From a bacterium (GTDB lineage: Bacteria > Patescibacteriota > Patescibacteriia > UBA9570): a stretch of 64,000 nt of DNA. The DNA lies in assembly GCA_030698395.1 (NCBI GenBank), contig JAUYKW010000026.1:12797-76796 (forward strand), in the 5' to 3' direction. The translations under genes and the position numbers were made by a program. Each line of letters opens with the position of its first letter. Position 1 is the first letter of the stretch. The notes beneath the pieces are model-generated. The model saw only the letters and a list, made by a program, of their open reading frames with translations. It searched no databases and had not been told where the DNA came from. Below are positions 7,239 to 50,337 of the stretch, piece by piece.

Positions 7239-7360
7239 ACCGAACCCCCGTCCGAAAGGGCTGCCGCCTCTGGAGATCGCGCGATGCGATCGTTTGTACA
7301 GAGGCGGCGGCTACCCAACTTTTATATATTCCGATTCCCAATTTGGGAATTTTTTTATTT

Positions 7361-7676
7361 TCAATTTCGTGGATTGTTATAAATATATTTTCTTATTCTT
7401 TTTAATTCATATTCATTCCGAATTATTCTGTCATGAAAACGTGGTTGCCATGCGAAATGATTCCAATTATTTTTATTACCCCATCTTGTAACTGCAGATT
7501 TATATGATCGAACAATTGTTGATATGGAATTTGATTTTGGTGAAACATTAGAATAAAAATTTTATTTGTTACAGAATCGTTTCGTTTTTGGGTAGAGACG
7601 TTGCATGCAACGTCTCTACGACGATCATTAATCACAATGATCCCGTGTACATGATTTGGCATTATCACAAATGCTC
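7361..7676 (-). pseudogene. REP-associated tyrosine transposase (RAYT, Y1 HUH) remnant, 5'-truncated and frameshifted
   Basis: FVIMPNHVHGII in one frame; SISTIVRSYKSAVTR...WQPRFHDRIIRNEYELKRIRKYIYNNPRN* in another. Confidence 0.85.
7592..7619. repeat. GTAG-type REP palindrome inside the RAYT remnant
   Basis: GTAGAGACGTTGCATGCAACGTCTCTAC. Confidence 0.85.
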
Positions 7677-7852
7677 ATTAATTAATATATCAAAAAATAC
7701 ATTTTATACAAAAAACCGCTCATTATAATATGAAGCGATCTTTCAAAAAAATTCTGGAGGAAGCCCATGTGTATGTCATGCTGGGAATGAACCCACACGA
7801 TCATGTTCACACGAGCAATCCTCGTTACTGGTTCACTACCGCGGCTGCGACT

Positions 7853-8029
7853 CTACCAGAGGTACGTATTCTCAGTCCGAGACCGATCTTCTGCGTCAGG
7901 ATCATTCTCTTTCGCGTAATCGTCTGCCCAGTCCTGAGCCACAGCACCCAAGACCTTCGCGAAGAAAATCATGGTACCCAGGGACGCAACGCTAGCGCCA
8001 ACTTGCGCCAGCAACACAACAACAGTCAT
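7853..8029 (-). CDS. GC-rich islet 2: 58-aa single-TM protein with acidic tail
   Basis: SD GGAG 6 nt before the ATG at 8029; promoter TTGACA(8133-8128)-N16-TAAAAT. Confidence 0.5.
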   Translation of the reverse strand: MTVVVLLAQVGASVASLGTMIFFAKVLGAVAQDWADDYAKENDPDAEDRSRTENTYLW

Positions 8030-8365
8030 CTTCAGCTCCACAATACGCAGGTTCTGGAAGGAACTGCGGTAGGATTAACGAGGATTGGCTATGTAGCCAA
8101 AAAAAATTTTACTATATTAATAATATTTGTCAATAGTATTTTTTAGATAAAAATAAAAAACGACCGGTTCTGATTTCAGCAATGGTCGTGAAAGCTACAA
8201 ATTCAGTTGTTAAGTTTATGGGTACCTGTGACATTCAAAATGATTATCACAGGCGTTCCTCCTTGCAGCGTCAACCGCCAGAACGAACTAGCCCGTGGTG
8301 CATCAGTTTGAAGCCGAAATAAATCGAGCTCCTAACATCATTACACCACGAGCATCGTCCCAGCT

Positions 8366-8512
8366 TTACTCCTTCGGCTTCAGTCGATTTTCTTCGTACA
8401 CCGGATCGGTCCGGGCCCGATACATCATGAATGCTGCCAGACCGAGCGAGCCACCGATGAAAACGGTAATCAGGAGCAGAGTTAACAGGGGCGAGTTCTC
8501 GATGAATGTCAT
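8366..8512 (-). CDS. GC-rich islet 3: 48-aa single-TM protein
   Basis: GGAGG 6 nt before the ATG at 8512 (MTFIENSPLLTLLLITVFIGG...); promoter TTTACA-N17-TAAGGT at 8577-8549. Confidence 0.55.
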   Translation of the reverse strand: MTFIENSPLLTLLLITVFIGGSLGLAAFMMYRARTDPVYEENRLKPKE

Positions 8513-8613
8513 AACAGTCCTCCATAGACAGATATTATCGAGATGCACACCTTATTAAATAATCCGCTATCTGTAAAGTTCACAAGAATCATGAAGTGTC
8601 GTACAATAGTTAT

Positions 8614-9540
8614 ATGACTGTAAATAAATTAATTATAGAATTTCTAGAATACTTAGAAATTGAGCGCAATCGTTCTGCTCAAACTATTAAAAATTATGAT
8701 TATTACCTGAAAAGGTTCCTAAAACTTTCAAAAGTTAAAACTCCGCAAGATATTACTCAAGATAAGGTAAGAAAATATCGTCTACAATTAAACCGTATCA
8801 CCAACCCAAATACAGGAGAACCTCTTAAGAAAAAAACTCAAAATTATCACATGATTGCACTGCGAGCTTTTCTAAAGTATCTCGCTAAACGAGATATCAA
8901 ATCAATGGCAGCAGAAAAAATTGAATTAGCCAAACAAGAAGATCGTCAAATCGAATTTCTAGATGGTAGTGAACTTGAACGACTACTAGAAGCTCCACTT
9001 CAAGTAAAAGGTAATGAAATTATAAAATTACGAAATAAAGCAATCTTAGAACTGTTATTTTCTACAGGATTACGTGTTTCAGAATTAGCGCATTTAAAAA
9101 TTTCTGATATCAATTTAAAACGCGAAGAATTCTCTGTGCGTGGTAAAGGCGGTAAAGTAAGAATAGTATTTTTATCCGAACAAGCCAGATACTGGCTAAA
9201 AAAATATCTAGATAAAAGAACTGATATTTCGCCATACATGTTCGTTGCCCATGATCGCGCTCAATCAGCTCGTGAACAAACTGATAGCGCACCAATTACA
9301 TCACGATCCATTGAGCGTATGGTGAGTAAATATGCTAGAGTTGCCGGCATTATGAAAAAAATCACTCCACATACACTACGTCATAGTTATGCTACTGATC
9401 TACTACGTAATGGCGCAGATATTCGATCTGTTCAAAGTATGCTGGGTCACTCTTCTATTACCACAACTCAAGTTTATACTCACGTTACGGATCAACAATT
9501 AAAAAAGATCTATAAAAAATTCCACAACAAGAAGACATAG
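8614..9540 (+). CDS. XerC/XerD-family tyrosine recombinase
   Basis: TGLRVSEL, GKGGKVR, PHTLRHSYAT, LGHSSITTTQVYTHV; SAM-like N-terminal domain. Confidence 0.92.
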   Translation: MTVNKLIIEFLEYLEIERNRSAQTIKNYDYYLKRFLKLSKVKTPQDITQDKVRKYRLQLNRITNPNTGEPLKKKTQNYHMIALRAFLKYLAKRDIKSMAAEKIELAKQEDRQIEFLDGSELERLLEAPLQVKGNEIIKLRNKAILELLFSTGLRVSELAHLKISDINLKREEFSVRGKGGKVRIVFLSEQARYWLKKYLDKRTDISPYMFVAHDRAQSAREQTDSAPITSRSIERMVSKYARVAGIMKKITPHTLRHSYATDLLRNGADIRSVQSMLGHSSITTTQVYTHVTDQQLKKIYKKFHNKKT

Positions 9541-9560
9541 AAAATCGTAGCTTGTTTTCT

Positions 9561-11303
9561 TTATAAAGTTTGGAGATAACGCAAAGCTTTATTTCCACCC
9601 ACTTTAAACCTGCCATCACCAGAACTTTTTAACACATTGCTTTTTTGAAAAATCTTTACTCGCATTTGCCCCACTCCTGTTAAATCCAAAAGTAAACTTT
9701 TCGCACGTTGAGTATTCCAATATGCGTACATATCATAATGGCCTTTATGAAATCTATACAAATATGCATCCGCTATTTTAGACGCATATAATTCATCTAT
9801 ATAAACCGTACCCTCTTCCAAGCTACCGTCTGCATCATCCAAAATAAATGAATCGAATGTTAATGGATAATCTAACTTACCGTCGTTATTACCGCCCCAA
9901 CTTCCTTGATAATTCTTAAGTTGGATTGTATAGAACAACCATTCTTTTGGCATGTATCCTAAGTTGTATTGAAATGTTTCACCTTTATTATCAGTTATTC
10001 TAACTCTTAAAGTTGTATCATCATTATCTCCCTTTACTTTAAATTGCAAAGCTTTAATCCTTCCTGGCAACTGCTTCTGTAATGCAATCGGAGCATAACA
10101 ATTACCATTTCCTGTAAAATTATAGTACACCTTCATTGTGCCTCCATCATGATCATCTAGAGCTCCACTAGTACATTCAGTTTCAGAAAAATGCCATCCC
10201 TTGCTGGAAACAAAATTATCAATAATTCTATATTCTGGTAAATTCATTCCTTCAAAGTACTTTCTATTCAAATTACGTTGCATAAATTTGTAGGCATGAT
10301 ATGCAGGCTTAGGTTTATACTCATGATCCACTAATCCAAATTGAGATTCTAAATAGGACTCATCCGCAGAAGAATCTGTCATGGTGTACCAAAATACTTT
10401 TTTTACATTTGGAATAGATAGTGCAATAGTGTAAAATCGCATTAAATATTTAGCCTGCATATTCTCTGTGATACCTCCAGAATAAGTTGTCCATCCAGCT
10501 TCCGTAATCCAAATTGGTGTATCAGTAAAACCGTGTTTATTCATTACTGCCTTAACATTATAAATGTCTACATATAACGGATTCAATCCAGCACCAGTAC
10601 GCTCTGGCATATAGTTAAAATTTCCATCGATAGTTCGGTAAGGATGTATAGCCACAACTTCAATATCCGATTTATCATCTACTTCTGAAAAAAATTCATC
10701 TAACCAAACAGCATCTGCTCCTGATACACCACCCAAAATTACTTTTGCATCTGGATTGGCAGATTTGATTTCATCTACTGCTGAAGAATAATAGGTTGCG
10801 TACTCTTTCAAGCTACCTTTCCAAAAACCTTCATGATTTGGCTCATTCCAGATCTCCCATGTATCAACAGATCCAGCATAATGCTCTGCAACTTTACCAA
10901 CGTAATCTTTCCAAGCATCTAAATCTGGCGGATAAAATTCTGAATCTGATGCGCCCGGATTTGTTGATGCCCACGAACTACTATATGTTAATAATCCTAA
11001 CATCTCAATATTTTTGTCCTGATACGCTTGAAGCACATTATCATAAGTAGTCCAATTATAATTACCGTCAGATGGTTCTATAACATCCCAATTAAATTGC
11101 TCTCTACCCCACTGAGCTCCTGTAGCCTCTACCTTTCCCAATACTGTATCCCAATCCGCCTCATCAACTCGCTCTCGCAAATGAACATTCACGCCAAAAG
11201 CATCTTTGATTCTATCTGAATTCGCTGAAGCAATGCCTGGCATAAATAGTATGCTAAATAACATACCTATAAATACTGGGGCTATGATAGATTTTATGCG
11301 CAT
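9561..11303 (-). CDS. Secreted glycoside hydrolase (GH-A clan, GH39/GH5-like) with C-terminal carbohydrate-binding-like domain
   Basis: Signal peptide, WEIWNEPN acid/base, AIHPY, IWITEAGW nucleophile. Confidence 0.8.
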   Translation of the reverse strand: MRIKSIIAPVFIGMLFSILFMPGIASANSDRIKDAFGVNVHLRERVDEADWDTVLGKVEATGAQWGREQFNWDVIEPSDGNYNWTTYDNVLQAYQDKNIEMLGLLTYSSSWASTNPGASDSEFYPPDLDAWKDYVGKVAEHYAGSVDTWEIWNEPNHEGFWKGSLKEYATYYSSAVDEIKSANPDAKVILGGVSGADAVWLDEFFSEVDDKSDIEVVAIHPYRTIDGNFNYMPERTGAGLNPLYVDIYNVKAVMNKHGFTDTPIWITEAGWTTYSGGITENMQAKYLMRFYTIALSIPNVKKVFWYTMTDSSADESYLESQFGLVDHEYKPKPAYHAYKFMQRNLNRKYFEGMNLPEYRIIDNFVSSKGWHFSETECTSGALDDHDGGTMKVYYNFTGNGNCYAPIALQKQLPGRIKALQFKVKGDNDDTTLRVRITDNKGETFQYNLGYMPKEWLFYTIQLKNYQGSWGGNNDGKLDYPLTFDSFILDDADGSLEEGTVYIDELYASKIADAYLYRFHKGHYDMYAYWNTQRAKSLLLDLTGVGQMRVKIFQKSNVLKSSGDGRFKVGGNKALRYLQTL

Positions 11304-11307
11304 AATT

Positions 11308-12726
11308 TTAATCTTTATAAGCATTTAAGTCTGCTAATGCAGAACGATACTCCTTCATAATAGCACGAGCATCACTTTCTGACATCTCTTTAAAATCATC
11401 TACCAAAGCTTCTGCTCGGCTAGTTAAAAACTCAGCAGTATTTCGTTTTGGATCTTCCAATACTTCATCCAACAAACGATGGAGCACAACACCTATTTTT
11501 GCACCTGGCTTCATGCCATATTTCTTCATTAATTCATTGCCATCAATAGCTAACATGCTAGTTGATATTGGATCTTTCTGAACATGTTCTATTCTTTGCT
11601 CTAGCTCTATTAATTTGTAAGGTTTTTCTTTGTACACGCCAGACCCCATACGATCGGCAATTCTAACTGCCATTAAATCTTCTAAATGTTCCACACCAAC
11701 ACGCTGTAACAATCGTCTAACTCCAGCATCAGTAATTTCACCAACATTGTAATAAAACATATGATGTTTAACTAAATGAAAAATTCTCTTAATATCGTTA
11801 TTAGAAAAATTCATCCGTCGCATAATTTGGCGGGCAATTTTTGCACTAACATGTTCGTGTTGATAGAAAGTTGCATCCCTCCCAGATCCCTCCTTCACTT
11901 CAGGCTTGCCAATATCATGAAATAAAGAAGCAAGTCGTACCTGCCAATCATCAGAGGGACAAAACTGCATGGCTAACAAGTTATGAGAGAAAACAGTATA
12001 AATATGATGCAAGTTCTGTTCTACACCAACGCAATTTTCTAACTCTGGTATGATAATTGCTAATAACCCACTAGTATGGAGCTGCCAAAAAGCTTTGTAT
12101 GAATCATCCGTAGAAACCATTTTAATAATCTCGTCCCGAATACGCTCTTGAGAAACATGTTTGATAAGTTCTGTATTTTTTACAATTGCCTGCCAAGTTT
12201 CTGCTTCAATGGCAAAACCTAACTGGCTACTAAAACGAATCGCGCGCAACATTCTTAAAGCATCTTCTTGAAATCGTTCATTTGCATCACCAACTGCGCG
12301 GATTAATTCTTTATCAATATCCAAAATGCCGGCAAATTTATCAACCAGCTCTTCGCCATCATAAGCAAGTGCATTAATAGTGAAATCTCTCCGTTCTACA
12401 TCTTCTTGTAATGATACGCCAAACTTCACCTCATCTGGATGACGATGATCTGTATAACCACCCTCACTTCGATATGTGGTTATTTCAATTTCAGCCTTAC
12501 CAATTTTAACTGTTACCGTACCAAAAGTATTCAAATACAGTGTTTTTGGAAAAATCTTCTGTATTTCATCCGGCAAAGCATTAGTAGTAACATCCCAATC
12601 CTTTGGTGTCCGCTGCATAATTAGATCACGCAAACAACCACCTACTACATAGGCTTGATGCTCATTTTGGTGTAATATCTGTAACACCTGTTGAACTTCT
12701 TTCGGTAAGCTGATAGTATAATCCAT
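11308..12726 (-). CDS. cca: CCA tRNA nucleotidyltransferase/poly(A) polymerase family with HD domain
   Basis: VVGGCLRD..DWDVTT, RRDFTINA, EDALRMLRA, HDIGK. Confidence 0.9.
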   Translation of the reverse strand: MDYTISLPKEVQQVLQILHQNEHQAYVVGGCLRDLIMQRTPKDWDVTTNALPDEIQKIFPKTLYLNTFGTVTVKIGKAEIEITTYRSEGGYTDHRHPDEVKFGVSLQEDVERRDFTINALAYDGEELVDKFAGILDIDKELIRAVGDANERFQEDALRMLRAIRFSSQLGFAIEAETWQAIVKNTELIKHVSQERIRDEIIKMVSTDDSYKAFWQLHTSGLLAIIIPELENCVGVEQNLHHIYTVFSHNLLAMQFCPSDDWQVRLASLFHDIGKPEVKEGSGRDATFYQHEHVSAKIARQIMRRMNFSNNDIKRIFHLVKHHMFYYNVGEITDAGVRRLLQRVGVEHLEDLMAVRIADRMGSGVYKEKPYKLIELEQRIEHVQKDPISTSMLAIDGNELMKKYGMKPGAKIGVVLHRLLDEVLEDPKRNTAEFLTSRAEALVDDFKEMSESDARAIMKEYRSALADLNAYKD

Positions 12727-12749
12727 ACTGTTATTACAGTATCACGTCG

Positions 12750-12821
12750 GTCCCTGTAGTTCAACGGATAGAACAACGGCCTTCTAAGCCGTGGATGTAG
12801 GTTCGATTCCTGCCGGGGACA
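12750..12821 (+). tRNA. tRNA-Arg(TCT), CCA not encoded
   Basis: GTCCCTG/CGGGGAC acceptor stem, ACGGC-ctTCTaa-GCCGT anticodon arm, GTTCGA T-loop. Confidence 0.93.
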
Positions 12822-13032
12822 CAATTAGAAATCAACACAATATAAAATCTCTATTCAGAGCATTCAAAAAACTGGATAAAAAATGGCAAAATATTGCATA
12901 ATATCAATTCTTTTGTTAAAATATTTTAGCTCTTTTTATTGTAAATCAATCTGGAAACAGAAACTAGAAAAGGTTAAATTAAAGCATGATACGACTTATC
13001 GTGGTATAAATATAGTCAGACAAAACTTCTTA

Positions 13033-13244
13033 AGTTCGTAGCCGAACAGAAAGGCAATTGAATAATTCTCAATGGCAATTCCGTTCAGTTTCGAACTACT
13101 AAGTAAGATTCTGATTTTGACAGGGTAGCTTCTGAACAAGTTCTTGAAAACTCGAAATTGAACAGACAAGTAGCTAGTTAATAACACTAAGGCTTATCCG
13201 TTCAGTTTCGATCGATGTGAGAAACTGTTCGTGACAGGGTAGCT
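13033..13244 (+). repeat. Degenerate ~115-bp tandem duplication of a hairpin plus the tRNA-Met 5' end
   Basis: TCCGTTCAGTTTCGA at 13080 and 13197; TGACAGGGTAGCT at 13118 and 13232. Confidence 0.75.
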
Positions 13245-13309
13245 CAGCTGGTTAGAGCGCGGGACTCATAAGCCCGAGGTCGAGGGTTCAATCCCCTCTC
13301 CTGTCACCA
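13233..13309 (+). tRNA. tRNA with CAT anticodon (elongator Met or Ile2), CCA encoded
   Basis: GACAGGG/TCCTGTC stem, ctCATaa loop; the G1-C72 pair argues against an initiator tRNA. Confidence 0.9.
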
Positions 13310-13310
13310 T

Positions 13311-13386
13311 GGTGGGCGTGGCGCAGTGGTAGCGCAGCGGCTTGTGGTGCCGTTGGTCGGGGGTTCGAATCCCCTCGTTCACCCCA
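13311..13386 (+). tRNA. tRNA-His(GTG) with G-1 and CCA
   Basis: GCGGC-ttGTGgt-GCCGT anticodon arm, G-1:C73. Confidence 0.93.
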
Positions 13387-13393
13387 AATATTT

Positions 13394-19333: not shown

Positions 19334-19353
19334 AAATGATTGTAAATAAATAA

Positions 19354-19381
19354 GTAGAGACATGCCATGGCATGTCTCTAC
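19354..19381. repeat. GTAG-type REP palindrome
   Basis: GTAGAGACATGCCATGGCATGTCTCTAC. Confidence 0.85.
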
Positions 19382-19680
19382 TTATTTTACGTTAGATCTT
19401 TTTAGGTAGCGTAATATTACAATCCTAGAAACACCCTCGCATATCCTACGGCTGTAGGATGTATACCAGCAAAGCCAGTTGCTAATGCTATAGCATCATC
19501 GTTGCCGTTATTATTCACATCTCCACATAAAATTAATGTTCCAAACAAACCATTTGAAATGGAAGATTTTTTATTTGACATTAATTTCGTTTTAAGCGAA
19601 TATTTAGCCACACTTTTTTCGAAATATGCCACCGCTTGTGTGATTCCTGTAAAGGAAACACCTAATGAGAGGACAGAGAG

Positions 19681-20040
19681 GTGATATTTTACAGAACATT
19701 GAGAGTCAGTGAAGCTACGGCTGCTTGGGCATACGGCATGGCCAGGCTCCGAACCCGTAAGCGAGAAACAGTCATCAATCCGAGGGACAACATCAGCACC
19801 TGCACGATCCACCGATCCGGACCGTCTAGTGCCGTCCTGATGCAGATCCCAAGGAGAAGAAACGCAACTCCGGTACGGTACCACCTGCACCTTCGAGTGT
19901 ACTCCCACCGTGGAGAACTGCTGGTGCGGAGTATTCTGGCCGACAGCGCCAGAAGCATTCCGAAAGTGAGGAGGAACAAGACCCGAGAACATCCTGCACC
20001 AATGGATTTCTCGGGTCGTGTTCTTATTTGCTATAATTAA
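19681..20040 (+). CDS. GC-rich islet 4: Arg-rich hypothetical protein (strand and end uncertain)
   Basis: TTGACA at 19575 (weak -10), AGGA before the GTG at 19681, C-ending codons; an antisense ORF 19689-19979 is an alternative. Confidence 0.35.
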   Translation: MIFYRTLRVSEATAAWAYGMARLRTRKRETVINPRDNISTCTIHRSGPSSAVLMQIPRRRNATPVRYHLHLRVYSHRGELLVRSILADSARSIPKVRRNKTREHPAPMDFSGRVLICYN

Positions 20041-22030: not shown

Positions 22031-22136
22031 GAGTATAACAGTATACCGTTCTTTTAGAGACTAATCAATTGTAATCTCTACAAGGACGGATCGAACATGA
22101 ACATGATAAATTATCAGTGGTTGTACGCCCTGGATC

Positions 22137-22547
22137 CTACTGTTTCATTCCCACCTGGATCGCATCAACCACATCCTGATGCATCAACGGTCCCTCCGCC
22201 AAGCCAGCATACACACCCTTGCAGAACTGAATCTCCAGTTCATGAAGAGCAACTCTCAAAATCAGGCTCAGCTCGTAATCATAGATCTGCGTCAGATCTG
22301 GGAATTGCGGGATACCCCATCGACTATCCAACTTCCCCGAGAATGGATTAGTGCCCGTCAGGTTGATATGATCCGTAATCACCATCAGCCGGTGTGGCTG
22401 AAAGGATGCATTGGTGAGTACCAACACCGAGGCACCCCACAACCGCATGACCCGTACTGCATGCACCACGACGTTCGCGAAATGACCTTCGTACAGATGC
22501 ACTCGACCACTGAGAACGACCACTGCGACATCATATGGCCTAATCAT
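22137..22547 (-). pseudogene. GC-rich islet 5: truncated purine nucleoside phosphorylase (PunA/XapA-type) fragment
   Basis: GRVHLYEG, LTNAS (deleted NAAGG), DHINLTGTNP, FPDL, GVY...GP; N- and C-terminal parts missing; promoter TTGACC-N17-TAATAT at 22624-22596. Confidence 0.75.
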
Positions 22548-22659
22548 TGTCTATCCCATCCTGTATTATTGATGAACATTAAGGTTAGCTCGATAATATT
22601 ATAGAAAAACTTAATTCAGGTCAATTTATTTTCCTAACCAATTCATGTACACTGTATTG

Positions 22660-23229
22660 ATGAGTAAATTTTTAGAAGACCTCCAAGCAGAAGGCCGGTG
22701 GCATCAATGGATGCGCAAATATAAAGATTTGATATTTCAACCTTTTGCCAAATTCTGTGTAGTATTAAAAATTTCGCCTTCAGCTGTTACGATAGCTGGT
22801 TTTATATTGGGAATACTTAGTATCTGGTTACTATTCATTAATTACTGGTACTTTGTGCTAGCTATGTTTTTAAGTTTATTTTTAGATGGCGTTGATGGTG
22901 CATTAGCTAGACACACAAATACAGTATCTAAATTTGGCAAAACTTTCGATTATTACGTTGATACTATATTAATGATCCTCATGTTTAGTGCTTTAACGTT
23001 TTGGTTAGGTGAACCATTATGGATAATTGGCCTTGATATTTATGGATTAGTTTTCTTATCGAACATGATAGCAGGTTCTCCTTTACGACCAGTTCCAGGC
23101 AGAACAGCAATGCTAATTCCTTGCATGTTAGGGTTACCGAAAGTTGGATTATTTCTACTATCTTTGTACGGTATAACTATGGCCATTGCTTTAACAAGGC
23201 ATTTACTAACAAAACAGACAAAAATGTAA
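22660..23229 (+). CDS. CDP-alcohol phosphatidyltransferase
   Basis: DGVDGALAR...SKFGKTFDYYVD motif. Confidence 0.88.
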   Translation: MSKFLEDLQAEGRWHQWMRKYKDLIFQPFAKFCVVLKISPSAVTIAGFILGILSIWLLFINYWYFVLAMFLSLFLDGVDGALARHTNTVSKFGKTFDYYVDTILMILMFSALTFWLGEPLWIIGLDIYGLVFLSNMIAGSPLRPVPGRTAMLIPCMLGLPKVGLFLLSLYGITMAIALTRHLLTKQTKM

Positions 23230-23253
23230 GGACATGCCATGGCGTGTCCTTAC
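23226..23253. repeat. REP-like palindrome overlapping two convergent stop codons
   Basis: GTAAGGACATGCCATGGCGTGTCCTTAC. Confidence 0.8.
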
Positions 23254-23813
23254 ATTTTTTGATAAATAAAGATTTTTTCTTTTTTATGATCAATTCTTTC
23301 TTTTGAAAAATACTTTTCTGCATCCTGTGGTAGTTCAAACATATTGCTTACAATTATACAACCAGGTTTACACTCTTTAATAAACTTTTCTGAAATTTTT
23401 GGCATCAATTTAGGAATCCAAAATCCAACAATTGCATCTGCATCGCTGATTGGATACATAAACATATCACCTTGTTCAATTTTTGGTTTACTTTTTGCTA
23501 ACAAAAATCGCAACCTTGCAATTCGTGCTAAATTAGAACTTATTTCCACTCCAAAAAACTCTGCATCTTTATACTTTTTCCTTAAGCCAGAAATTAAGAC
23601 ACCATCACCACAACCAAGATCAACAATATTTTTTTTATTTTTCAAAACTCCAGACTCAATAATCAAATTAACTACCTTTTGTTGAGTTGGTACAAATGGT
23701 AGGGGCCGATTATATAAAAAAATAATTGGTAGCACTCTCCATATTATTCCTAACAATGCTATTAGCAAAACACATTGTAATACGATATAAATCCAGATTA
23801 TTACGTTTGGCAT
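23250..23813 (-). CDS. Class I SAM-dependent methyltransferase, membrane-anchored
   Basis: PFVPT, VDLGCGDG, GVEIS, KPG..IVSNMF. Confidence 0.85.
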   Translation of the reverse strand: MPNVIIWIYIVLQCVLLIALLGIIWRVLPIIFLYNRPLPFVPTQQKVVNLIIESGVLKNKKNIVDLGCGDGVLISGLRKKYKDAEFFGVEISSNLARIARLRFLLAKSKPKIEQGDMFMYPISDADAIVGFWIPKLMPKISEKFIKECKPGCIIVSNMFELPQDAEKYFSKERIDHKKEKIFIYQKM

Positions 23814-23935
23814 AGTAATAGCATAACATACCTAAAAACATTGACTAGGTAATCCAAAACTAGTAATGTGTTGGGCACGATCTGTACATTTCACCGCCCA
23901 AATATTACAAAAGGGCACAAACCGAGAGGATTCTC

Positions 23936-25111
23936 ATGGGTACCCAGCACGTTAGTCGCAATGTCATCATCGTCGGCGATTCTCCCAACAAGAACGCTGG
24001 CGAACATCATCCCTTCACCATGGTAGACGGAGCCATCTACCACACTGACATGGTCGGCATCGATCCCCGAGCCAGCGCCGTCAACTACGGCCTCGCACGC
24101 ATCTCCGGCTATGGAGCCTGGCGCCGTCCCGAGGACGATACGCACTGGATGTTCCGCCCGGAAGACCACATGACGCGCATTCACCAGAACGCTTTGGCCA
24201 TTCCCGTTCTGGGAGATTTCCCGAGCACAAACATGCTCGTAGACTGGTCCATAACCAGTCTGGGCCTCGGCATCCCTCACCTCACGCGGGCCAAGGACGT
24301 CTACGGACGGACGCTAGTGGTGCAGGGTGGCGTCGCTCTCGGTGTTGGAACCCGCGGTCACGGCCACGTGATCAACTTCACGCGAGACCTGACAGAATAT
24401 GTTCCGGCTGAAGGGCTGGATCTGCTGTTCCCTGGCATGCTCTGTCGCCGACCCAACATTTTCATGGGTCGCCCCTTCGAAAAGGCGGCCGGCAACTACG
24501 ACTTGGCCCACTTCTGGAAAGGCGTCGTTGCCAAGGGACTAGGCTTCAACGAAATTCTGATGCTCAACTGGAACGGCACCGAAATCGCCGAGACCAGTGG
24601 TAGCATCCCGGTAGCCATCGTCCGCCTGTCGGACAAGAAAATTCAGATGCGTGTGCCACGCCTGGAATCCGGCCGACTGAATTCGATCACCACTGACACA
24701 CTCATCTACTTGGCCCATAAGCTGGGCTGGGAAGTAATCGTGAACCAACGCCTGACATTGGATCACCTGATCCATGCGGACGAACTCTGGGTGGCTGGTT
24801 CCTGGAGTGGTCTTGCTAGTGTGAGGAACATTAGCTTGGACCAACGCTGGATGCGTGAAGCACCCATCCTTCCACCTGAGATCTTCAGAGACGGAGTAGG
24901 GCCGGCATACAAAGCGTGGCTGGATGAAAATTTTCAGCCCGTGAATGCTCGCAAACTGGGCTGGACCCCTTCCTTCGCACCTGGTCCACTCGGTACTCAG
25001 CTCCGCGAACTCTACTGGGGCGTGGTGCGCAACCGCCCAGAATTCCGGCGCATCGATCGTCCCAGCAACTGGAATGTCAAGGTGAACCCGATCGTCCCAA
25101 ACACGGAATAA
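23936..25111 (+). CDS. GC-rich islet 6: divergent PLP fold-IV aminotransferase (IlvE-like)
   Basis: FRPEDHMTR, KAAGNY (catalytic Lys), GFNEILML, AETSGS, ADELWVAGS; promoter TTGACT(23841)-N17-TAATGT; SD GAGG. Confidence 0.8.
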   Translation: MGTQHVSRNVIIVGDSPNKNAGEHHPFTMVDGAIYHTDMVGIDPRASAVNYGLARISGYGAWRRPEDDTHWMFRPEDHMTRIHQNALAIPVLGDFPSTNMLVDWSITSLGLGIPHLTRAKDVYGRTLVVQGGVALGVGTRGHGHVINFTRDLTEYVPAEGLDLLFPGMLCRRPNIFMGRPFEKAAGNYDLAHFWKGVVAKGLGFNEILMLNWNGTEIAETSGSIPVAIVRLSDKKIQMRVPRLESGRLNSITTDTLIYLAHKLGWEVIVNQRLTLDHLIHADELWVAGSWSGLASVRNISLDQRWMREAPILPPEIFRDGVGPAYKAWLDENFQPVNARKLGWTPSFAPGPLGTQLRELYWGVVRNRPEFRRIDRPSNWNVKVNPIVPNTE

Positions 25112-25263
25112 AGATCTAGGAGGACACCTGGAGCCACGTACCAATGTACGTAGCAACAGGTGGGGGAAATTGTTATGCATGCATAACGTTTCCCCGCCTC
25201 CCCAATGGTTATTAGCTACTTAATAGCTATCGGTGAGAATCAAAATAACTTAAATAAAAAACA

Positions 25264-25291
25264 GTAGAGACATTCCATGGCATGTCTCTAC
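25264..25291. repeat. GTAG-type REP palindrome
   Basis: GTAGAGACATTCCATGGCATGTCTCTAC. Confidence 0.85.
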
Positions 25292-25330
25292 TGTTTATCA
25301 TGTCCCTACTTTATAAATTTCTCTATCTAA

Positions 25331-26392: not shown

Positions 26393-26580
26393 ATGTTTAT
26401 AAATCCAATATTTATCAATAAAATTACTAACAAATATACCCTATAATAGGGCTTTTGTCAATACCTAAAGCATAAATAGATAACTTCCGGCCAATAAGAA
26501 CCATATATGATTCGCATTGGGGGAAGACGGAACCAGCTGTTTGAGAGCGTAATTCCGTCTGCCGTGTCCTCCTCACGGCA

Positions 26581-26952
26581 TCATGCCGACTGTTGGCACG
26601 TGAACACGAAGTGCGTCCTGTCCCATTTCACTTCCAGTCTGGTACCGACCTGAATGTTCAGCTCATCTCGAATCCTGCTGGGAATCGTCAAACGACGCTG
26701 ACCGTCCGTATTTACGGGTTCACCAGCGAAGGCCTGAACTCCGTCCAGAATCCGACCAGCCGGCGTCTGGACCATCTCGATCCACTCGGACATAGGAAAC
26801 ACATGGAGTGAACCATCCCGGAACGAAGTCATGTAGAACGTTTCGTCCGGTCCGTACTCTCCGTACAGTGGATTCATGAAGTGATTGGCAAGCATCAGAC
26901 GACCCTTCTGATCGACTGTCGCAGTTCGGACACCAAAAATATAAACACACAT
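26581..26952 (-). CDS. GC-rich islet 7: MraZ-like tandem AbrB-fold DNA-binding protein
   Basis: FG..TATVDQKGRL and DGQRRLTIPSRIR repeats; GAGGAGG SD; promoter TTGACA-N17-TAATCT at 27078-27050. Confidence 0.7.
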   Translation of the reverse strand: MCVYIFGVRTATVDQKGRLMLANHFMNPLYGEYGPDETFYMTSFRDGSLHVFPMSEWIEMVQTPAGRILDGVQAFAGEPVNTDGQRRLTIPSRIRDELNIQVGTRLEVKWDRTHFVFTCQQSA

Positions 26953-36353: not shown

Positions 36354-37103
36354 TTAATAAATTCCGAATGTATAGTTAGCAATTTGTCTTAATAATTTAT
36401 TTGGATCTCTTTCAATATCCGATCTCCTTAATCCACTCTTTTTTTCAAACTCTTCAAATACAGAAGTATAAAATTCATCATTTATTATGTCTTCCGGATT
36501 AACTTCAGCTATCAATTCCAGCCAAGCAACTCGAGCTTTAAAATCTTCATTTAAATGCACGTCAGACATTTCTGAATAACGCCGAATGGAAAAACCAGAA
36601 TCAATATATCTAACATCTCCATCCTTAGTAACCATTAAATTTGTATCACCTAATAAATCAAATGGCAAATTACCTTCATCAGTTCCGGTTTCTTCATATT
36701 CTCGATAACTAGTTTTTAGTAAACCTGCTATCTCTGCTAATTGGACACGACTTTTTTCCTGTAAACCACCAATTTCATATTCATATACATCTGCTGGTTC
36801 TGCTGGCTGTAATCTCTCCTGAGCCAAAAAAAAACTTTTCCTAGGTTTCTCACTATAATGTGGCATCACCCATTGCCGTGGAATATATTTTCCATAGTGT
36901 TTCTGCAGACTTTTATACCGATCCCGCAATTCATATGCAGTTTCTTCATCAAATCCTTCTTCAGATCCTTTACCAAATCTTCCTTCTAAATGTTTGATTA
37001 CCAATTTACTATCAGTACCATCTTCTTTCTTTACACCATAAACCATGGTTTCATTTCCCATGCTTAATAGACTCTTCCTTTTACTACCTCTTCTATCATC
37101 CAT
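36354..37103 (-). CDS. Hypothetical protein, possible protein-kinase-like fold
   Basis: LVIK, FDLLGDTNLMV, YIDSG. Confidence 0.5.
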   Translation of the reverse strand: MDDRRGSKRKSLLSMGNETMVYGVKKEDGTDSKLVIKHLEGRFGKGSEEGFDEETAYELRDRYKSLQKHYGKYIPRQWVMPHYSEKPRKSFFLAQERLQPAEPADVYEYEIGGLQEKSRVQLAEIAGLLKTSYREYEETGTDEGNLPFDLLGDTNLMVTKDGDVRYIDSGFSIRRYSEMSDVHLNEDFKARVAWLELIAEVNPEDIINDEFYTSVFEEFEKKSGLRRSDIERDPNKLLRQIANYTFGIY

Positions 37104-44953: not shown

Positions 44954-44963
44954 GAGAATAAAT

Positions 44964-44993
44964 AAAGAGGTGTCTAAAATAGTCACCTCTTTT
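44964..44993 (+). terminator. Intrinsic terminator
   Basis: AAAGAGGTG...CACCTCTTTT. Confidence 0.6.
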
Positions 44994-45048
44994 GTTACCA
45001 AAAAAAATATCCTTGCATTAATTATCGAGGATCAGTATAATATATTTA

Positions 45049-45591
45049 ATGGCGACTAAACATAAAGAGTTCAAAAATAAAATAAAAGATCTACAAACGG
45101 AGGACTTCGAGCATCCAGAAGATTTTTTTAGTCGTGCGCATGAACTAAACGAATCCAGCGCTCAACCAGGAACTCTATATACAGACGAAACTCCACCATC
45201 TCAAAGATTAACCAATGCAGATGAAATGTGGATTGATGCTAGCAATGAAGGCTATGAAGGGCAACTTGCTATTGATGTTTACCAAGACGACAAATTTTTA
45301 TATGTAAAAGCAATCGTTGGCGGTGTACCACCAGATGATATTGAAATACACCTAAACAATGATATGTTAACAATCAAAGGAAAACGATCTCAGCCTGATA
45401 TGGGTATAGACCCAGAGAATTATTATATTCAAGAATGTTACTGGGGTGGTTTCTCTAGATCCGTAATCCTACCTGTAGATATCCAAAACGAACAAGTTGA
45501 AGCAATTACAGAGAATGGTGTACTCACAATTACTCTACCAAAATCAAATCGACCAAAAAACGCAAGAATTCCGATTAAGGAAATAAAGTAG
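45049..45591 (+). CDS. Hsp20/alpha-crystallin small heat-shock protein
   Basis: LAIDVYQ, LTIKGKR, ECYWGGFSRSVILP, NGVLTITLPK. Confidence 0.92.
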   Translation: MATKHKEFKNKIKDLQTEDFEHPEDFFSRAHELNESSAQPGTLYTDETPPSQRLTNADEMWIDASNEGYEGQLAIDVYQDDKFLYVKAIVGGVPPDDIEIHLNNDMLTIKGKRSQPDMGIDPENYYIQECYWGGFSRSVILPVDIQNEQVEAITENGVLTITLPKSNRPKNARIPIKEIK

Positions 45592-45747
45592 CAATCGTTT
45601 AGAACCAGGAGGGTACAAAGATTAATATTTTGTTAACGAGCGCTGTGTCGAAATGCATACTGCGCTATTTAATATTGACGTTTTTCCCGATTACTGGTAA
45701 ACAGGTCTAGTTACAAATAATAATAAATACAGAAAGTGTAAAAAATA

Positions 45748-47784
45748 ATGACAAATCAAGAATCAAAAAAGAAACAACCTCCAGTTGATGAGAAGAAATC
45801 TACAGAAAAAAAGGTTATTGAAGAACAACCTACAGAAAAAACATCTCCTGAAAAAAAGAAATTCCCTATCAAAAAAACTCTTGGCATTATCGCCGGAAGC
45901 ATCGTCGTGCTTATACTACTTATTATTGTTGGTTATTTTATTTATGAATACACCTACCAAGATAAAATTTATCCAGGCGTAACGTTAAACAATGAAGACA
46001 TGTCTGGAAAAACCTATTCAGACATAACTAGTGAAATAAATACCTATAAAGCATCATTAGATAATACAGGTTTAAATTTTAGCTACGAAGAAAAAGAATA
46101 TTCTATCAAACCACAAACAAAGGATGAAGAAAGTGGTGATATTATGTATTTAGTTAATATTAATACTGACGAAACAGCACAGGCAATATATGGTATAGGT
46201 AGAAGCGATGATGAGCAAACAAATCTAAAAAACAAAGTTAGTGCTTTATTTGGTGGGTATGACGTTACACCAAATTATTCTGTAGATAAAGAAACACTGA
46301 TAGCGTTATTGAGTAACGAATTCAGTGAATTCGAACAACCAGATGAAAATGCTAAACTTAGTTTTTCAGAAAACGGTGAAATACAAATTAGTGACCATAA
46401 AGATGGCTACACTTTTGATTGGGAATCATATCTGGATGAAGTGGAAAGCAATTTAAACAGTTTTGAACCTGTTAATATTAAGCTAGAACTTACTGCTAAT
46501 CCTGCACCAATTACTACGGAAACTGCCGAAAATATGCGTACCGAAATTGAGGCTATCTCAGATCTCTCTCCAATAACACTTACTTATGAAGATCAAACAT
46601 TTGAAATTGAAAGTGAAGAATTTAATTCTTGGTTAATGCTCACAGAAAATGGAGTTAGTTTTGATGAAGAACTTGTTGATTCATCACTCGATACTATTGC
46701 AGGTAAAATTGATATTCCCGTTAAAGAAGGACGCTTTAGCTTAGACATAGTAAACGATGTGGTGGAACTAACTCAATTCGAAGAAGGCGCTGATGGACTG
46801 GAAGTAAATATCGAAAAAACCATTACAGAAGTAAACGCATCAATTCTTGATAATAAACAAAGTAAATCAGAGCTTATAGTTGAAGTGACAACTCCCCGCG
46901 TAACACCAGGCAACCTAAACGAACTAGGAGTTAAAGAAATCTTAGGAACCGGAACTACTAGCTTTGCCGGAAGCCCATATAACCGTATTGGTAATATTCA
47001 AAAAGGTGCAGATTTATTAAATGGTTTGTTAATAGCCCCTGGAGAAACTTTCTCATTAATGAAATTACTATCACCAGTTGATATTGCTCATGGTTGGCTT
47101 TCAGAATTAGTTATTAAAGGAGATAAATTGGAAAAAGAAGCTGGCGGTGGGCTATGCCAGATTGGTACAACGGTTTTTAGAGCAACTATGATGTCTGGAT
47201 TAGAAGTAGTAGAACGACGTAATCATTCTTGGGCAGTATCATATTATAATTACAATGGAAAAGCTGGAGTTGATGCAACCATTTATGAACCATCTCCTGA
47301 TTATAAATTTAAAAATGATACTGAAAATTATATATTGATCCGTAGTAGAATAGAAGGTAGTGATATATACTTTGAATTCTGGGGTACATCTGATGGTAGA
47401 AAAGGTAGCTTTACTGAGCCTACAAACTACGGCTATGTATATCCTGGTCCAACCGAAGAAATAGTTGATCCTAGTTTACCGCCGGGTGCCAGAAATTGTC
47501 CTACTCATGCTTTTACCGGAGTTAGCGCATCATTTGATTATATTATTGAACGTCCAGATGGTTCCATAGACACAACTAATTACACTAGTGTATACAAATC
47601 ACGATCTGCCGTGTGTATGGTTGGTCCAGAAGCTGAAAAAACACCTACTGAAGAAACTACTCAAGATATTACTGAAACAGTCGACACAACGACTCCAGTT
47701 GTAACTCCGGAAGTTGATGTTCCTACCGAAACAACAAAAGATACAACTAAGAAAGATACGACAAAAAAGAAAAAGAAGAATTAA
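45748..47784 (+). CDS. VanW-family protein with PG-binding repeats
   Basis: IYPGV, PGETFS, GGGLCQIGTT, ERRNHS, GVDATI. Confidence 0.88.
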   Translation: MTNQESKKKQPPVDEKKSTEKKVIEEQPTEKTSPEKKKFPIKKTLGIIAGSIVVLILLIIVGYFIYEYTYQDKIYPGVTLNNEDMSGKTYSDITSEINTYKASLDNTGLNFSYEEKEYSIKPQTKDEESGDIMYLVNINTDETAQAIYGIGRSDDEQTNLKNKVSALFGGYDVTPNYSVDKETLIALLSNEFSEFEQPDENAKLSFSENGEIQISDHKDGYTFDWESYLDEVESNLNSFEPVNIKLELTANPAPITTETAENMRTEIEAISDLSPITLTYEDQTFEIESEEFNSWLMLTENGVSFDEELVDSSLDTIAGKIDIPVKEGRFSLDIVNDVVELTQFEEGADGLEVNIEKTITEVNASILDNKQSKSELIVEVTTPRVTPGNLNELGVKEILGTGTTSFAGSPYNRIGNIQKGADLLNGLLIAPGETFSLMKLLSPVDIAHGWLSELVIKGDKLEKEAGGGLCQIGTTVFRATMMSGLEVVERRNHSWAVSYYNYNGKAGVDATIYEPSPDYKFKNDTENYILIRSRIEGSDIYFEFWGTSDGRKGSFTEPTNYGYVYPGPTEEIVDPSLPPGARNCPTHAFTGVSASFDYIIERPDGSIDTTNYTSVYKSRSAVCMVGPEAEKTPTEETTQDITETVDTTTPVVTPEVDVPTETTKDTTKKDTTKKKKKN

Positions 47785-47816
47785 TCATAAACAAAATCGT
47801 ATCTACTATTTATTGT

Positions 47817-48000
47817 GTCGTTTTTAATTTTTAGTTTCAAAAATCCCCGAAGTCTGTAGGCAAGAGAACTTGCGGAAGGGATGCATAGAGCTTGCGCCTT
47901 ATATATCCTTCCTACACGTTCCCATGCTCGTCGTGCCTACAGGAGTCAGGGATTTTTGCTTTTAAATTTATGCCGATCGAATACAAATTATTCAAACGAC
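47817..48000 (-). ncRNA. Candidate ~184-nt rod-shaped ncRNA (6S-like?)
   Basis: Promoter TTGACA-N17-TATACT (48034-48006); nested stems; no ORF. Confidence 0.55.
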
Positions 48001-48256
48001 CAAATAGTATAGCGGACTCTTGCCTATTTGTCAAGAGGTATGATAAAGCCAAGCATCAATAATGTACGTATTTAAGCTAACATTAGCAAAATTCTATGTT
48101 TTTAAACTCTTTATAAGAACGTATCAATAAATACGAACTTGACTCATATCTAGTTATTCACTACGGTGATGGTCCGGTTGCACTCATAGCTATGTGTGCG
48201 ATGACTGGGCCTTGAAAAACACTCACGAAGCCACTGTGCTTCTAGCGGAGACGAAA

Positions 48257-48721
48257 TTGCAGACCGACGCCCCAACCCCTGACCTCACCCCCCGCCCTCA
48301 GAACTCTACGAAGACGCTCCCGACCGCACAGATCATCGCCGAAATCGTGATGGCTACTGGCGAAGACCGCAACCGCCTCGTGGTCATGCTGGCCATCGAG
48401 ATCGAGCTCCGGCGGATCGCGTACGAGCTGCTCACGCTCGCGCCGAACAAGATCCACGACGTCGGACAGCTGACCCCCTGCTTGGAACAGGCCGAAGCAC
48501 TGGACGAACTGATCCTCAAGCACCAGCTCGATGAGCGTGTGACCGACGTGATCGTACTGCTCGATGAGCGTGTGACCGACTCGTCAACCATCATCCGGGC
48601 CGCGAACATGCTCGCCCAGGCCGCGAACCGGATCGCGACGCAGGCCAAGGAGGTGGCGGATGATCTGCGCAAGGATCGCCTCAAGCCCCCCGAGCCGTTC
48701 GTAGCGATCAACGGCTGCTGA
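48257..48721 (+). CDS. GC-rich islet 8: helical orphan protein
   Basis: TTGACT(48139)-N17-TACGGT, GGAG before the TTG at 48257; internal 22-bp repeat. Confidence 0.65.
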   Translation: MQTDAPTPDLTPRPQNSTKTLPTAQIIAEIVMATGEDRNRLVVMLAIEIELRRIAYELLTLAPNKIHDVGQLTPCLEQAEALDELILKHQLDERVTDVIVLLDERVTDSSTIIRAANMLAQAANRIATQAKEVADDLRKDRLKPPEPFVAINGC

Positions 48722-48861
48722 CTCACAAGTCAACCGGACAGGAGGAGTTCCGGACGAAATCACACTAGCAGGCATGGTAGCAATACCCACCCGCAAAGAG
48801 ATCTCGTCCGGTACCCCGCACACAATCTTTTTCAACATCTTCAACTTATTTCATCTATTCC

Positions 48862-48886
48862 AAGACGCGATAAATCGCGTCTTTAC
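48862..48886 (-). repeat. REP-like palindrome
   Basis: GTAAAGACGCGATTTATCGCGTCTT on the minus strand. Confidence 0.7.
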
Positions 48887-49002
48887 TCTTTTTCAATACA
48901 TACTGCCCTTGACTTTAGGGTCTTTTTTTACTACGGTTGTAGCCTGGTCGCAAGCAAATGTAACCAGATTCCACTGAAACTCTCACCTCCAAAGGAGCAG
49001 AA

Positions 49003-49434
49003 ATGCGCCTTCCCTCCGCGGCAAGCACCATGCTTCGCTGTCACCGCCTTCTCGCCAAGATCGAGCTCACCGACCACAACCGCACCCTGCAGTTGTGTGC
49101 CATCCCGGCACTTCAGGTGGAGCTCTACCGCATTGCGTCTATGATGACGCGACGCGAAGATGTGAGACCTGAACAGGTTCACAAGATTCTCAAGGAGATT
49201 CGCGATATCGTGACTCTCGCCGAAACGCACCAAATGCTGATCGGCAATACGAATGAAATCGAAGATCTCCTCAACCAAGCTGAGGTCCGCGAACTGGCAT
49301 GGTCCGTTGTTCGGCACCTGGTCACCAATGCGATCGATGCATTGGACCTGTACGCTGATCAACTGGACGCCGACGTGGACGTCGAGCTACTGAGTATCGG
49401 CATGATGGCACTCGCTCCGAGTGTCCACGCCTGA
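49003..49434 (+). CDS. GC-rich islet 9: helical orphan protein
   Basis: TTGACT(48909)-N17-TACGGT, SD AAGGAG. Confidence 0.7.
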   Translation: MRLPSAASTMLRCHRLLAKIELTDHNRTLQLCAIPALQVELYRIASMMTRREDVRPEQVHKILKEIRDIVTLAETHQMLIGNTNEIEDLLNQAEVRELAWSVVRHLVTNAIDALDLYADQLDADVDVELLSIGMMALAPSVHA

Positions 49435-49746
49435 TCATGCTCAGCTATGGTAGCTCTCCTCCTCCAGAGGGCTAGGCTCCAAGCCATCCGGGGAAGAGTG
49501 TTCGCTGATTCTGCACCGTGCAGGAACATCGACGCTCTCCCCGGATCCTACCCCCCCTGTATATGTAAACCAACTAAATTGCATATAGAGGAAAGAAAAT
49601 AACCCAACAATCGGGTTATTTTTTATTACTAAAAAACATTATTATCAGGTCTCAAATGATTGACAATTACCCTATTTTACATTACGGTTATGGGGCTTTT
49701 CAGTTTGTAAACATCCCATTTCGGGACAATAGAGAGGACCAAATAG

Positions 49747-50166
49747 ATGACTGACCAGTACCTGTCGTGGGCGAGAAATGCTTTGCGGAGCACAGATGAG
49801 AACCTGCGTATCGCATCTACCGTGCCGAACCTGAACACGAACTTTGTCAGACGACTCCTCGTGAGTCGTAACCAGATCAACGTCTTCCTGACCGGTCCGC
49901 TCACGCAGCCGGGACTGGTGACGTTCGACCTGCACATCACCTGCCAGGAAGAACTGGCTGATCTGGTCGCCAAGTTGCTGCACATCTTCGAAGACATCGG
50001 CCACGAGGACATGCTCGAGGCGCAGTATGTGAGCGGCCTGCTCACTTCGGCCGTCGGGCAGACCACAGTCGCTTCAGCACTCTTGCAGAAGGCTCTGCGA
50101 GACGGCGAGGAGATCAAGAAGGTCGAGTCCATCGAAGGACCGTCGATCTGGTCCGCTGGTTGCTGA
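49747..50166 (+). CDS. GC-rich islet 10: helical orphan protein
   Basis: TTGACA(49660)-N17-TACGGT, SD GAGGA. Confidence 0.7.
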   Translation: MTDQYLSWARNALRSTDENLRIASTVPNLNTNFVRRLLVSRNQINVFLTGPLTQPGLVTFDLHITCQEELADLVAKLLHIFEDIGHEDMLEAQYVSGLLTSAVGQTTVASALLQKALRDGEEIKKVESIEGPSIWSAGC

Positions 50167-50337
50167 AAAGCGCCACCCGCGGAGGACGGGAATCCAGGGT
50201 GGAACGACTGCAACAAGCATCGTTCTCCCTGGCCCCACCCACACTTGAAATAATTCCTCTTTTTATCTATAATATATTAACAGCGCGCCACTTGGGCGCT
50301 TTTAATTTCATAATTATTCACTTAATTAAAAGTACAT

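Follow-up and report, generated by a model that had tools for sequence, protein, structure and literature searches.

Why should a bacterium whose resident genes start without Shine-Dalgarno (SD) sequences place an SD-like word at the 3' ends of one particular class of genes? The question is raised by the window analysed here, a 64,000-nucleotide stretch (G000:C31:12797-76796) of a chromosome with 36% GC from a candidate phyla radiation (CPR; Patescibacteria) bacterium, in which GC-rich gene units, hereafter islets, often end in a recurring arrangement of the word AGGAGGA, a long stem and a C-rich tail. We find that this module is real, replicated and lineage-level, and that complete copies are present in about one quarter to two fifths of GC-rich units; we tentatively favour a role as a stabiliser of 3' ends. 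No description of the module or of the gene class was found in the literature searched, supplements and most subscription papers being outside the reach of that search.

A replicated word at the 3' ends of GC-rich units

Two-state GC segmentation of the genome (G000; 1.32 Mb, 97% complete, of groundwater origin, and a CPR bacterium by gene content and size) gave 87 segments of at least 150 nt, from which manual removal of RNA genes and low-complexity coding stretches left 34 gene units, of which the window holds 10 and the rest of the genome 24. Three further samples were assembled. Set A comprises 21 of the 24 outside units, three having been dropped where the automatic boundary left less than 25 nt of untranslated region (UTR), although two of those three (C3c and C22) do carry AGGAGG; its units were oriented by hand after their ends had been seen, and bias is therefore possible. 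Set B holds 37 units called automatically in relatives' sequence totalling about 1.5 Mb (of 104 segments, 69 had an open reading frame (ORF) and 37 passed score and UTR-length filters), and Set C is a held-out sample fetched after the motif had been fixed (39 segments, 6 without a confident ORF and 7 with UTRs out of range, 26 kept). Together these make 84 units outside the window, to which the window adds 9 for a total of 93. The p values given below overstate independence, because the genomes compared are kin.

The initial annotation of the window had proposed a shared 3' module from six motif sites, eight stems with their tails, and a hairpin holding the complementary word in islet 9, all of which we recover at the same positions. 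The word is far more frequent than expected from dinucleotide shuffles: GGAGGA occurs in 6 of 9 unit UTRs in the window (0.37 expected), and this enrichment is repeated in Set A (4 of 21 against 0.91, p=0.008), in Set B (11 of 37 against 0.98) and in the held-out Set C (6 of 26 against 0.92). The top two hexamers of the 84 outside-window 3' UTRs are GGAGGA itself (21 against 2.7) and AGGAGG (18 against 3.2). Resident gene ends, in comparison, carry GGAGGA in 3 of 223 cases, and the word reaches 3.5 copies per kb in unit UTRs, a density five-fold that of the final 147 nt of unit coding DNA (0.7 per kb). The window is the richest sample, with 6 of 9 units as opposed to 21 of 84 elsewhere. A genome-wide scan for GGAGGA plus a hairpin proved too permissive, returning at least 127 of 394 sites.

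The consensus of the word is (U)AGG(A/G)GGA. Six relatives carry it, of which four belong to the same family and two to family f5 (where one case is probably a true gene start), and it was seen in none of the few filter-passing units of G016, G017, G013, G004, G003 and G010; the aminotransferase UTRs of G003 and G010 nonetheless carry AGGAGG(A/G). Indeed, the word is retained in the aminotransferase UTRs of G000, G006, G010 and G003, where the proteins compared are 28-52% identical. When AGGAGG is altered at one letter, which gives 18 variants, the strongest enrichment falls on the wobble-compatible AGGGGG (10 against 4.2, p=0.01 uncorrected), and an exchange between AGGAGG and AGGGGG separates two paralogous modules of G006. 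A further variant, in which the complement CUCCU lies in a hairpin loop, is seen in islet 9 (49451-49474) and in the aminotransferase 3' UTRs of G016 and G024 (L002, L003). On contig C22 of G000 an AGGAGGA-plus-hairpin module occurs twice (at about 10700 and about 15990) with a common stem-base sequence, one copy lying in AT-rich DNA.

Anatomy of the module

The eight window stems span 12-26 bp at -13 to -37 kcal/mol, with z values of -4.8 to -6.7 (200 dinucleotide shuffles each) that are inflated because the stem ends were chosen by the initial annotation. Across a broader sample of 67 units (in which the boundaries of three long UTRs overshoot) a stem was found in 60, with a median of 14 bp and -27 kcal/mol and a range of 11-29 bp; the first letter of the stem is G in 68% and the last is C in 63%. 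Folding of the final 70 nt gives a median z of -3.1 in the 67 units and -2.1 in the 26 held-out units, as compared with -0.2 for unit coding DNA.

Word and stem lie close together. A stem lies downstream in 32 of 35 motif-bearing units and starts 0-8 nt after the word in 30 of those 32, a spacing of at most 8 nt being reached by 64% of control positions (p=1e-4). Measured from the stop codon, the word may lie anywhere between -1 and 128 nt, and in long UTRs, with sites at 58-128 nt, its position follows the stem and not the stop. The stem is followed by about 8 nt that are rich in C and A and poor in G, and then by AT-rich DNA: tail positions 1-8 hold 33-38% C and 8-15% G, and C exceeds G among the last six letters in each of four sets (27:10, 58:27, 108:66 and 74:43).

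What recurs is a layout and not a stem sequence, as had been proposed from the window: aligning its six modules gave no consensus pairs, and stem sequences are unrelated between units, paralog and ortholog pairs excepted. (A four-sequence alignment of modules mixed two unrelated pairs.) The hairpin-loop placement at 26567-26573, described in the initial annotation, is an exception: the word usually lies outside hairpin loops, and folding models leave it mostly unpaired at 6 of 26 sites, with a median unpaired probability of 0.26.

Nor is the module a standard intrinsic terminator, in agreement with the initial annotation. Even under a loose rule, just 11 of 67 units have a U-tract next to the stem; in 22 of 67 an ordinary hairpin-plus-U terminator lies within the next 110 nt, a rate similar to that of resident gene ends (47 of 120; shuffles, 15 of 120). 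A hidden gene after the word was considered and rejected, as a start codon follows at 9 of 26 sites against 27% in controls, without excess; after a looped-out stem the count is 11 of 32, a figure that has no control. We likewise reject membership of the repetitive extragenic palindromic (REP/BIME) elements or of an Rfam family, given that the six window modules show no consensus pairs and that Rfam matches in the window are tRNAs only, with none at E<=1 in five loci.

The units are sharply delimited. Third-codon-position GC (GC3) is about 0.26 in resident genes and 0.5-0.88 in GC-rich units, and the GC-rich stretch, in units with a clear promoter, opens no more than about 110 nt from the predicted start site, or right at it, and stops at the C-rich tail. 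Corresponding slots in relatives hold different units, or none. The islets are neither assembly chimeras nor misassemblies: in sequencing run X1 (possibly the source sample) raw contigs continue through their borders with an even depth of about 10x, and two contigs of run X2, which belongs to the same study, span islet borders with 0 differing letters. The DNA sequencing runs examined yielded no usable polymorphism.

The islets of the window

Islet 1, on the plus strand, has a sigma70-type promoter (6836-6864) with the GC-rich stretch beginning at the predicted start site, an SD-led ORF for a predicted membrane protein of 89 amino acids (aa; 6969-7238; a distant homolog, at 30%, occupies the same slot in G002), and a 19-bp terminal stem with a TACCC tail (7260-7316) without the SD word, followed by an ordinary terminator-like site at 7333-7351. 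The GC-rich stretches at 6867-7316, 7753-8100 and 22100-22550 all lack the motif; within the last of these lies a GC-rich purine nucleoside phosphorylase fragment of 136 aa (22137-22547), with a GC-rich homolog of 258 aa in G002 (L081). Islet 3, on the minus strand, pairs an SD-led ORF of 48 aa (8366-8512) with a complete module (8220-8263), in which AGGAGGA (8263-8257) precedes the stem (8253-8225) and TACCC, and a terminator-like hairpin with U residues lies further downstream. The plus-strand module at 19969-20023 is atypical: its AGGAGGA and stem (19980-20017) are present as first described, but the tail is U-rich and the assignment of an islet gene is uncertain.

The aminotransferase islet, on the plus strand, comprises a sigma70-type promoter (23841-23869), a divergent class IV (branched-chain-type) aminotransferase with GC3 of 0.69 (23936-25111), which belongs to a fast-evolving clade discussed below, and a module of AGGAGGA, two hairpins and CCCC (25118-25203) whose GGAGG is predicted to pair fully with CCUCC before the tail. 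On the minus strand a promoter (27078-27050) precedes an SD-led, divergent MraZ/AbrB-like gene (26581-26952) and the module with AGGAGGA in a hairpin loop, a stem at 26560-26525 and CCCCC (26519-26573).

Islets 8 to 10 follow one another on the plus strand. Islet 8 (48139-48721) has a promoter (48139-48167) and an ORF of 175 aa at whose start no SD was found; its module (48740-48817) consists of AGGAGGA, a stem at 48750-48811 and TACCCC, with a terminator-like site at 48862-48883. Islet 9 (48909-49434) has a promoter (48909-48937) and an SD-led ORF of 143 aa belonging to no family, for which an atlas search returned no match at 0.9, and ends in the variant module (49451-49557), in which anti-SD-like CUCCUCC sits in a hairpin before a 26-bp stem (49486-49546) and TACCCCCCC. 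Islet 10 (49660-50166) has a promoter (49660-49688), an ORF of 139 aa, and a module (50181-50240) of GGAGGA, a stem at 50194-50232 and CCCCACCC, with a terminator-like site at 50285-50299. With the MraZ-like and islet 9 proteins as queries, no orthologs were found in 31 genomes of the order.

Translation and RNA decay

Resident genes are SD-less and unit genes are SD-led. Only 1.9% of 903 resident first ATGs have an anti-SD energy of -8 kcal/mol or lower, and their median (-0.7 kcal/mol) is weaker than that of internal ATGs (-2.1), whereas 68% of 37 unit genes reach -8 under a best-candidate rule that gives 11% for resident genes. With the limit at -5 or better, the same rule finds a candidate start for 35 of 37 unit genes (44% for resident genes), and in relatives -5 or lower is reached by 19 of 26 unit genes and 87 of 954 resident genes. 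The 16S tail carries CACCUCCUUU, and the anti-SD is intact. The ribosomal protein bS21, which hides the anti-SD in Bacteroidia (PMC7797042) and is reported to be often lost in Parcubacteria (PMC9297842), was not found in G000. As regards RNA decay, G000 has RNase J, RNase III and PNPase (the last at 2913-5063 of the window, minus strand); Rho and reverse transcriptase were not found, and for RNase R/II there was no RNB-family match. The tRNA set of G000 includes a tRNA-Ile with a UAU anticodon, tRNA-Arg with GCG and UCG instead of ACG, and a single tRNA-Pro, and ARAGORN reported no transfer-messenger RNA.

A possible stabiliser of 3' ends

Our tentative reading of these sequence patterns is that the AGGAGGA-stem-C-rich module may serve as a 3'-end stabiliser of GC-rich, SD-led units, in line with stability or processing among the several roles that the initial annotation had named. 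Transcription would run past the stem to an ordinary terminator, and the transcript would then be trimmed back to the module, where the long stem would halt PNPase and leave a C-rich stub. At the stem's foot, the start-less SD word would hold a 30S subunit by way of the 16S anti-SD, which is expected to be free because bS21 was not found and because an SD-less transcriptome should offer little competition. As with STAB-SD (see below), the bound subunit would also block RNase J, leaving a stable 3' fragment of 45-95 nt, and when no subunit is bound the word would pair loosely with the C-rich tail.

The link to the anti-SD, suggested in the initial annotation, is plausible given the 16S tail and the enrichment of AGGGGG, and the sequences lend modest support to 16S pairing. 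It is weakened by energies: the antisense strand shows an equal rise in best anti-SD duplex energy, so that only the exact word is strand-specific.

Several further observations weigh against the stabiliser reading. GGAGGA is present in only 21 of 84 independent units, and even the looser AGGRGG/GGAGGA in 38 of 93. The 3' word is also tighter than real SDs, in that A follows GGAGG at 28 of 35 3' sites against 10 of 25 5' sites (p=0.003), where the U that would pair with the anti-SD is common; such A-rigidity fits a GGA-reading protein better than 16S pairing. In folding models the word is mostly paired, its best partner being distal 3' sequence at 11 of 26 sites. Moreover, STAB-SD shields the RNA downstream of it, which here implies protection of the tail alone and not of the coding part, and the ordinary downstream terminator that the scheme calls for was located in just 22 of 67 units. 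The regular A, the predicted pairing and the lack of a sense-strand advantage in energy together bring in two alternatives for the word, a protein reader or a plain basal helix.

If the stabiliser reading is correct, mRNA 3' ends would employ a ribosome-recognition word in a genome otherwise without SD initiation; the anti-SD would thereby gain a new use, which would go some way to explain why SD-less bacteria keep it. In addition, the module provides a sequence handle on a class of CPR genes (GC-rich, SD-led and fast-evolving) that has so far had no explanation.

A possible export tag on host-translated mRNAs

The strongest competitor, which we nevertheless consider unlikely, holds that the module is an export tag read by a protein, and that the units are mRNAs translated by the ribosomes of the CPR's host cell. 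A parasitic CPR cell might conceivably deliver effector mRNAs into its host, with AGGAGGA-stem-CCC acting as a tag for export or survival; it is no more probable that host-type SDs, codons and dinucleotide signature would let host ribosomes translate the units, and equally speculative that Csx3, an extra MraZ and orphan metabolic enzymes could rewire host defence, division and metabolism. Were it true, bacterium-to-bacterium injection of mRNA would offer a testable route to how CPR bacteria manipulate their hosts.

The appeal of this proposal, apart from the rigidity of the 3' word, is that every translation signal sets the SD-led unit genes apart from resident ones. ATA, TTA and AGA account for 2%, 1% and 5% in units as opposed to 28%, 47% and 37% in resident genes; TpA is depleted at codon junctions (0.61 against 0.94) and GATC is not avoided (1.02 against 0.79). 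The units favour CCC, CTG, GTG and CGG, for which none of the 40 tRNAs found is an exact match, although wobble can read these seemingly missing codons and tRNAs may be unassembled. Stop codons point the other way: units use TAG 47, TGA 37 and TAA 9 times, and the TAG:TGA ratio of G000 units (18:14) resembles that of resident genes (202:121). Lack of bS21 also suggests that the CPR ribosome can itself use SDs.

Unit content is similarly two-sided. A GC-rich two-gene unit (L165; G000:C25:10050-11456) encodes, as its first protein, an apparently duplicated Csx3 ring-nuclease domain, and no Cas10 was found in G000; Csx3 degrades cA4, the messenger of type III CRISPR systems (PMC8284326). The divergent MraZ-like gene (26581-26952) is a second copy beside a canonical mraZ on contig C19 (G000:C19:13783-14193), and the branched-chain-type aminotransferase keeps its catalytic lysine in a genome in which IlvD was not found. 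However, no transport system was linked to the units, and many unit proteins belong to secreted types (M23, MopE repeats), for whose production the CPR cell itself could suffice. For 55 of 77 unit proteins sampled from relatives there is no Pfam family. MopE-type repeats (PF11617) occur in units of relatives (L014, L027, L030, L045, L084, L125, L126), one of them with an M23 peptidase and FG-GAP, and the taxonomic affinity of these proteins could hint at a host.

The islet aminotransferases form one clade (support 100/99) drawn from six genomes and three families, all GC-rich relative to their flanks, and the path between two genomes of one genus is 1.49 for the islet enzyme against 0.26 for the canonical one, or about five times faster, with the caveat that long branches in this tree may attract. 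Only two relatives (54-58%) came out of a word-based search among 5.8 billion proteins, and metagenome scans returned none at first and then 19 distant aminotransferases (26-33%), with no close islet loci. Judging from this clade and the rarity of its relatives, the units are not recent imports.

Two causes of the high GC content were considered and set aside. Coding hyper-folding was not seen in the six G000 units tested (z of -1.3 to +0.3 against synonymous shuffles), although 3 of 10 units from relatives reach z < -4. A-directed mutation of the kind produced by diversity-generating retroelements fails in that T-ending codons are depleted too and no reverse transcriptase was found.

Other explanations for the module

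Slightly less probable again is a purely structural role, in which the word would be the purine-rich 5' strand of a basal helix with the C-rich tail and the whole would act as an exonuclease barrier. The predicted pairing with distal 3' sequence at 11 of 26 sites (0.93-1.0 paired in two), a mild enrichment of CCTCCT (9 against 2.65) and the tendency of stems to begin with G and end with C are all consistent with such a helix. Yet structure has no need of one exact word, and GGAGGA exceeds expectation by 21 to 2.7; furthermore, the matching TCCTCC occurs in just 0 of 21, 5 of 37 and 0 of 26 units, and the word is unpaired or pairs upstream at 14 of 26 sites.

Less likely still is that stem and tail form a non-canonical, U-less intrinsic terminator, with the SD-like word coupling a trailing ribosome to termination. 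Rho was not found, a scan of 110 nt located no ordinary terminator in 45 of 67 units, and GC content falls right after the tail, as this idea would predict. Against it stand the stability of C-rich RNA:DNA hybrids and stems (11-29 bp) longer than those of usual terminators, and downstream terminators are about as frequent after units as after resident genes (22 of 67 and 47 of 120).

The initial annotation had also raised CsrA/RsmA binding, which we regard as very improbable. The word holds two GGA triplets, one window copy lies in a hairpin loop (unpaired 0.93) and a host could supply CsrA, but GGA falls in hairpin loops in 8 of 84 units against 8.2 in shuffles, there is usually one site per UTR, and PF02599 was not found in G000 (97% complete), in a search that recovered 3 of 14 controls.

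Just as improbable is a signal for DNA recombination or retro-copying, such as an attC-like cassette end or the 3' end of an RNA replicon: slots with different units or none, sharp boundaries at predicted RNA ends, and tails such as ACCCA, which we take to resemble RNA-phage 3' ends, are set against an attC core pair (RYYYAAC/GTTRRRY) in only 1 of 93 units, a neighbouring recombinase (8596-9540) that is XerC/D-like and below the integron cut-off (IntI was not searched for elsewhere in the genome), the failure to find a reverse transcriptase, 5' ends that are not regularly GGG, and no extra DNA depth over the islets in run X1. Compared with Leviviral/RQ replicon ends, 3' CCC is common and 5' GGG irregular; the PF03431 search recovered 0 controls.

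Pairing between a unit's own two ends was rejected, since in 31 units own ends (-12.2 kcal/mol) do no better than swapped ones (-12.5 kcal/mol, p=0.68), and striking cases, for example 9 bp in islet 8, no longer stand out once partners are swapped; nor is the 3' UTR predicted to capture the 5' SD in the manner of icaR, the SD being paired at most 0.16 in 16 units.

Comparison with known systems

In its proposed action the module comes closest to a STAB-SD shifted to the 3' end, though it is not a member of that family. The STAB-SD of Bacillus thuringiensis cry3A is a start-less SD-like word proposed to bind 30S subunits (PMC4113751). The likeness lies in an SD-like word that starts no translation (9 of 26 against 27% in controls) and in the presence of RNase J and an intact anti-SD in G000. 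STAB-SD, however, sits in a 5' UTR and shields the coding region, whereas the word here comes after the stop codon, is fixed against a terminal stem, and belongs to one gene class of an otherwise SD-less genome.

SD-less Bacteroidia keep an SD on rpsU (PMC7797042, PMC13000453) and share with G000 genome-wide SD loss, an intact anti-SD and a small SD-led exception. They differ in that bS21 hides the anti-SD there and was not found in G000, and in that the exception in G000 is a whole GC-rich gene class with an extra SD at the 3' end. The mRNAs of Staphylococcus aureus icaR (PMC3868564) and Bacillus subtilis hbs (PMC5737220) pair their 5' and 3' UTRs and resemble the units in having C-rich or SD-related words in the 3' UTR; the units, in contrast, show neither enrichment of own-end pairing (p=0.68) nor predicted capture of the 5' SD.

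With intrinsic terminators and 3' stabilising stem-loops the module shares a GC-rich stem ending a transcription unit (60 of 67 units), but its stems are longer, its tail is C-rich instead of U-rich, an SD-like word lies upstream, and an ordinary terminator often lies further downstream. With CsrA/RsmA targets it shares a GGA-containing word in an untranslated region, but the word is not enriched in loops and is mostly single, and csrA was not found.

Additional observations

Two unrelated large units of G000 (C14:16420-16690 and C30:3790-4050) have a common multi-hairpin 3' trailer of 230-270 nt with 71-74% identity. On contig C6 two similar, structured, GC-rich elements of 150 nt without a clear ORF (36737-36886, plus strand, and about 6820-6970, minus strand) each resemble in part an insertion in the RNA gene at C11:20039-20493, which we take from its motifs to be RNase P-like, and may represent a non-coding RNA family or a small repeat. 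An SD-led gene at G000:C21:6288-7160 appears phage capsid-like by eye, and its contig may be a prophage. REP-like palindromes of 35 nt occur in the window at 7586-7620, 19348-19382, 23220-23254 and 25258-25292, and in relatives too. Finally, a 72-nt tandem repeat on the minus strand (62578-62739) encodes a Lys/Ala-rich, histone-like stretch.

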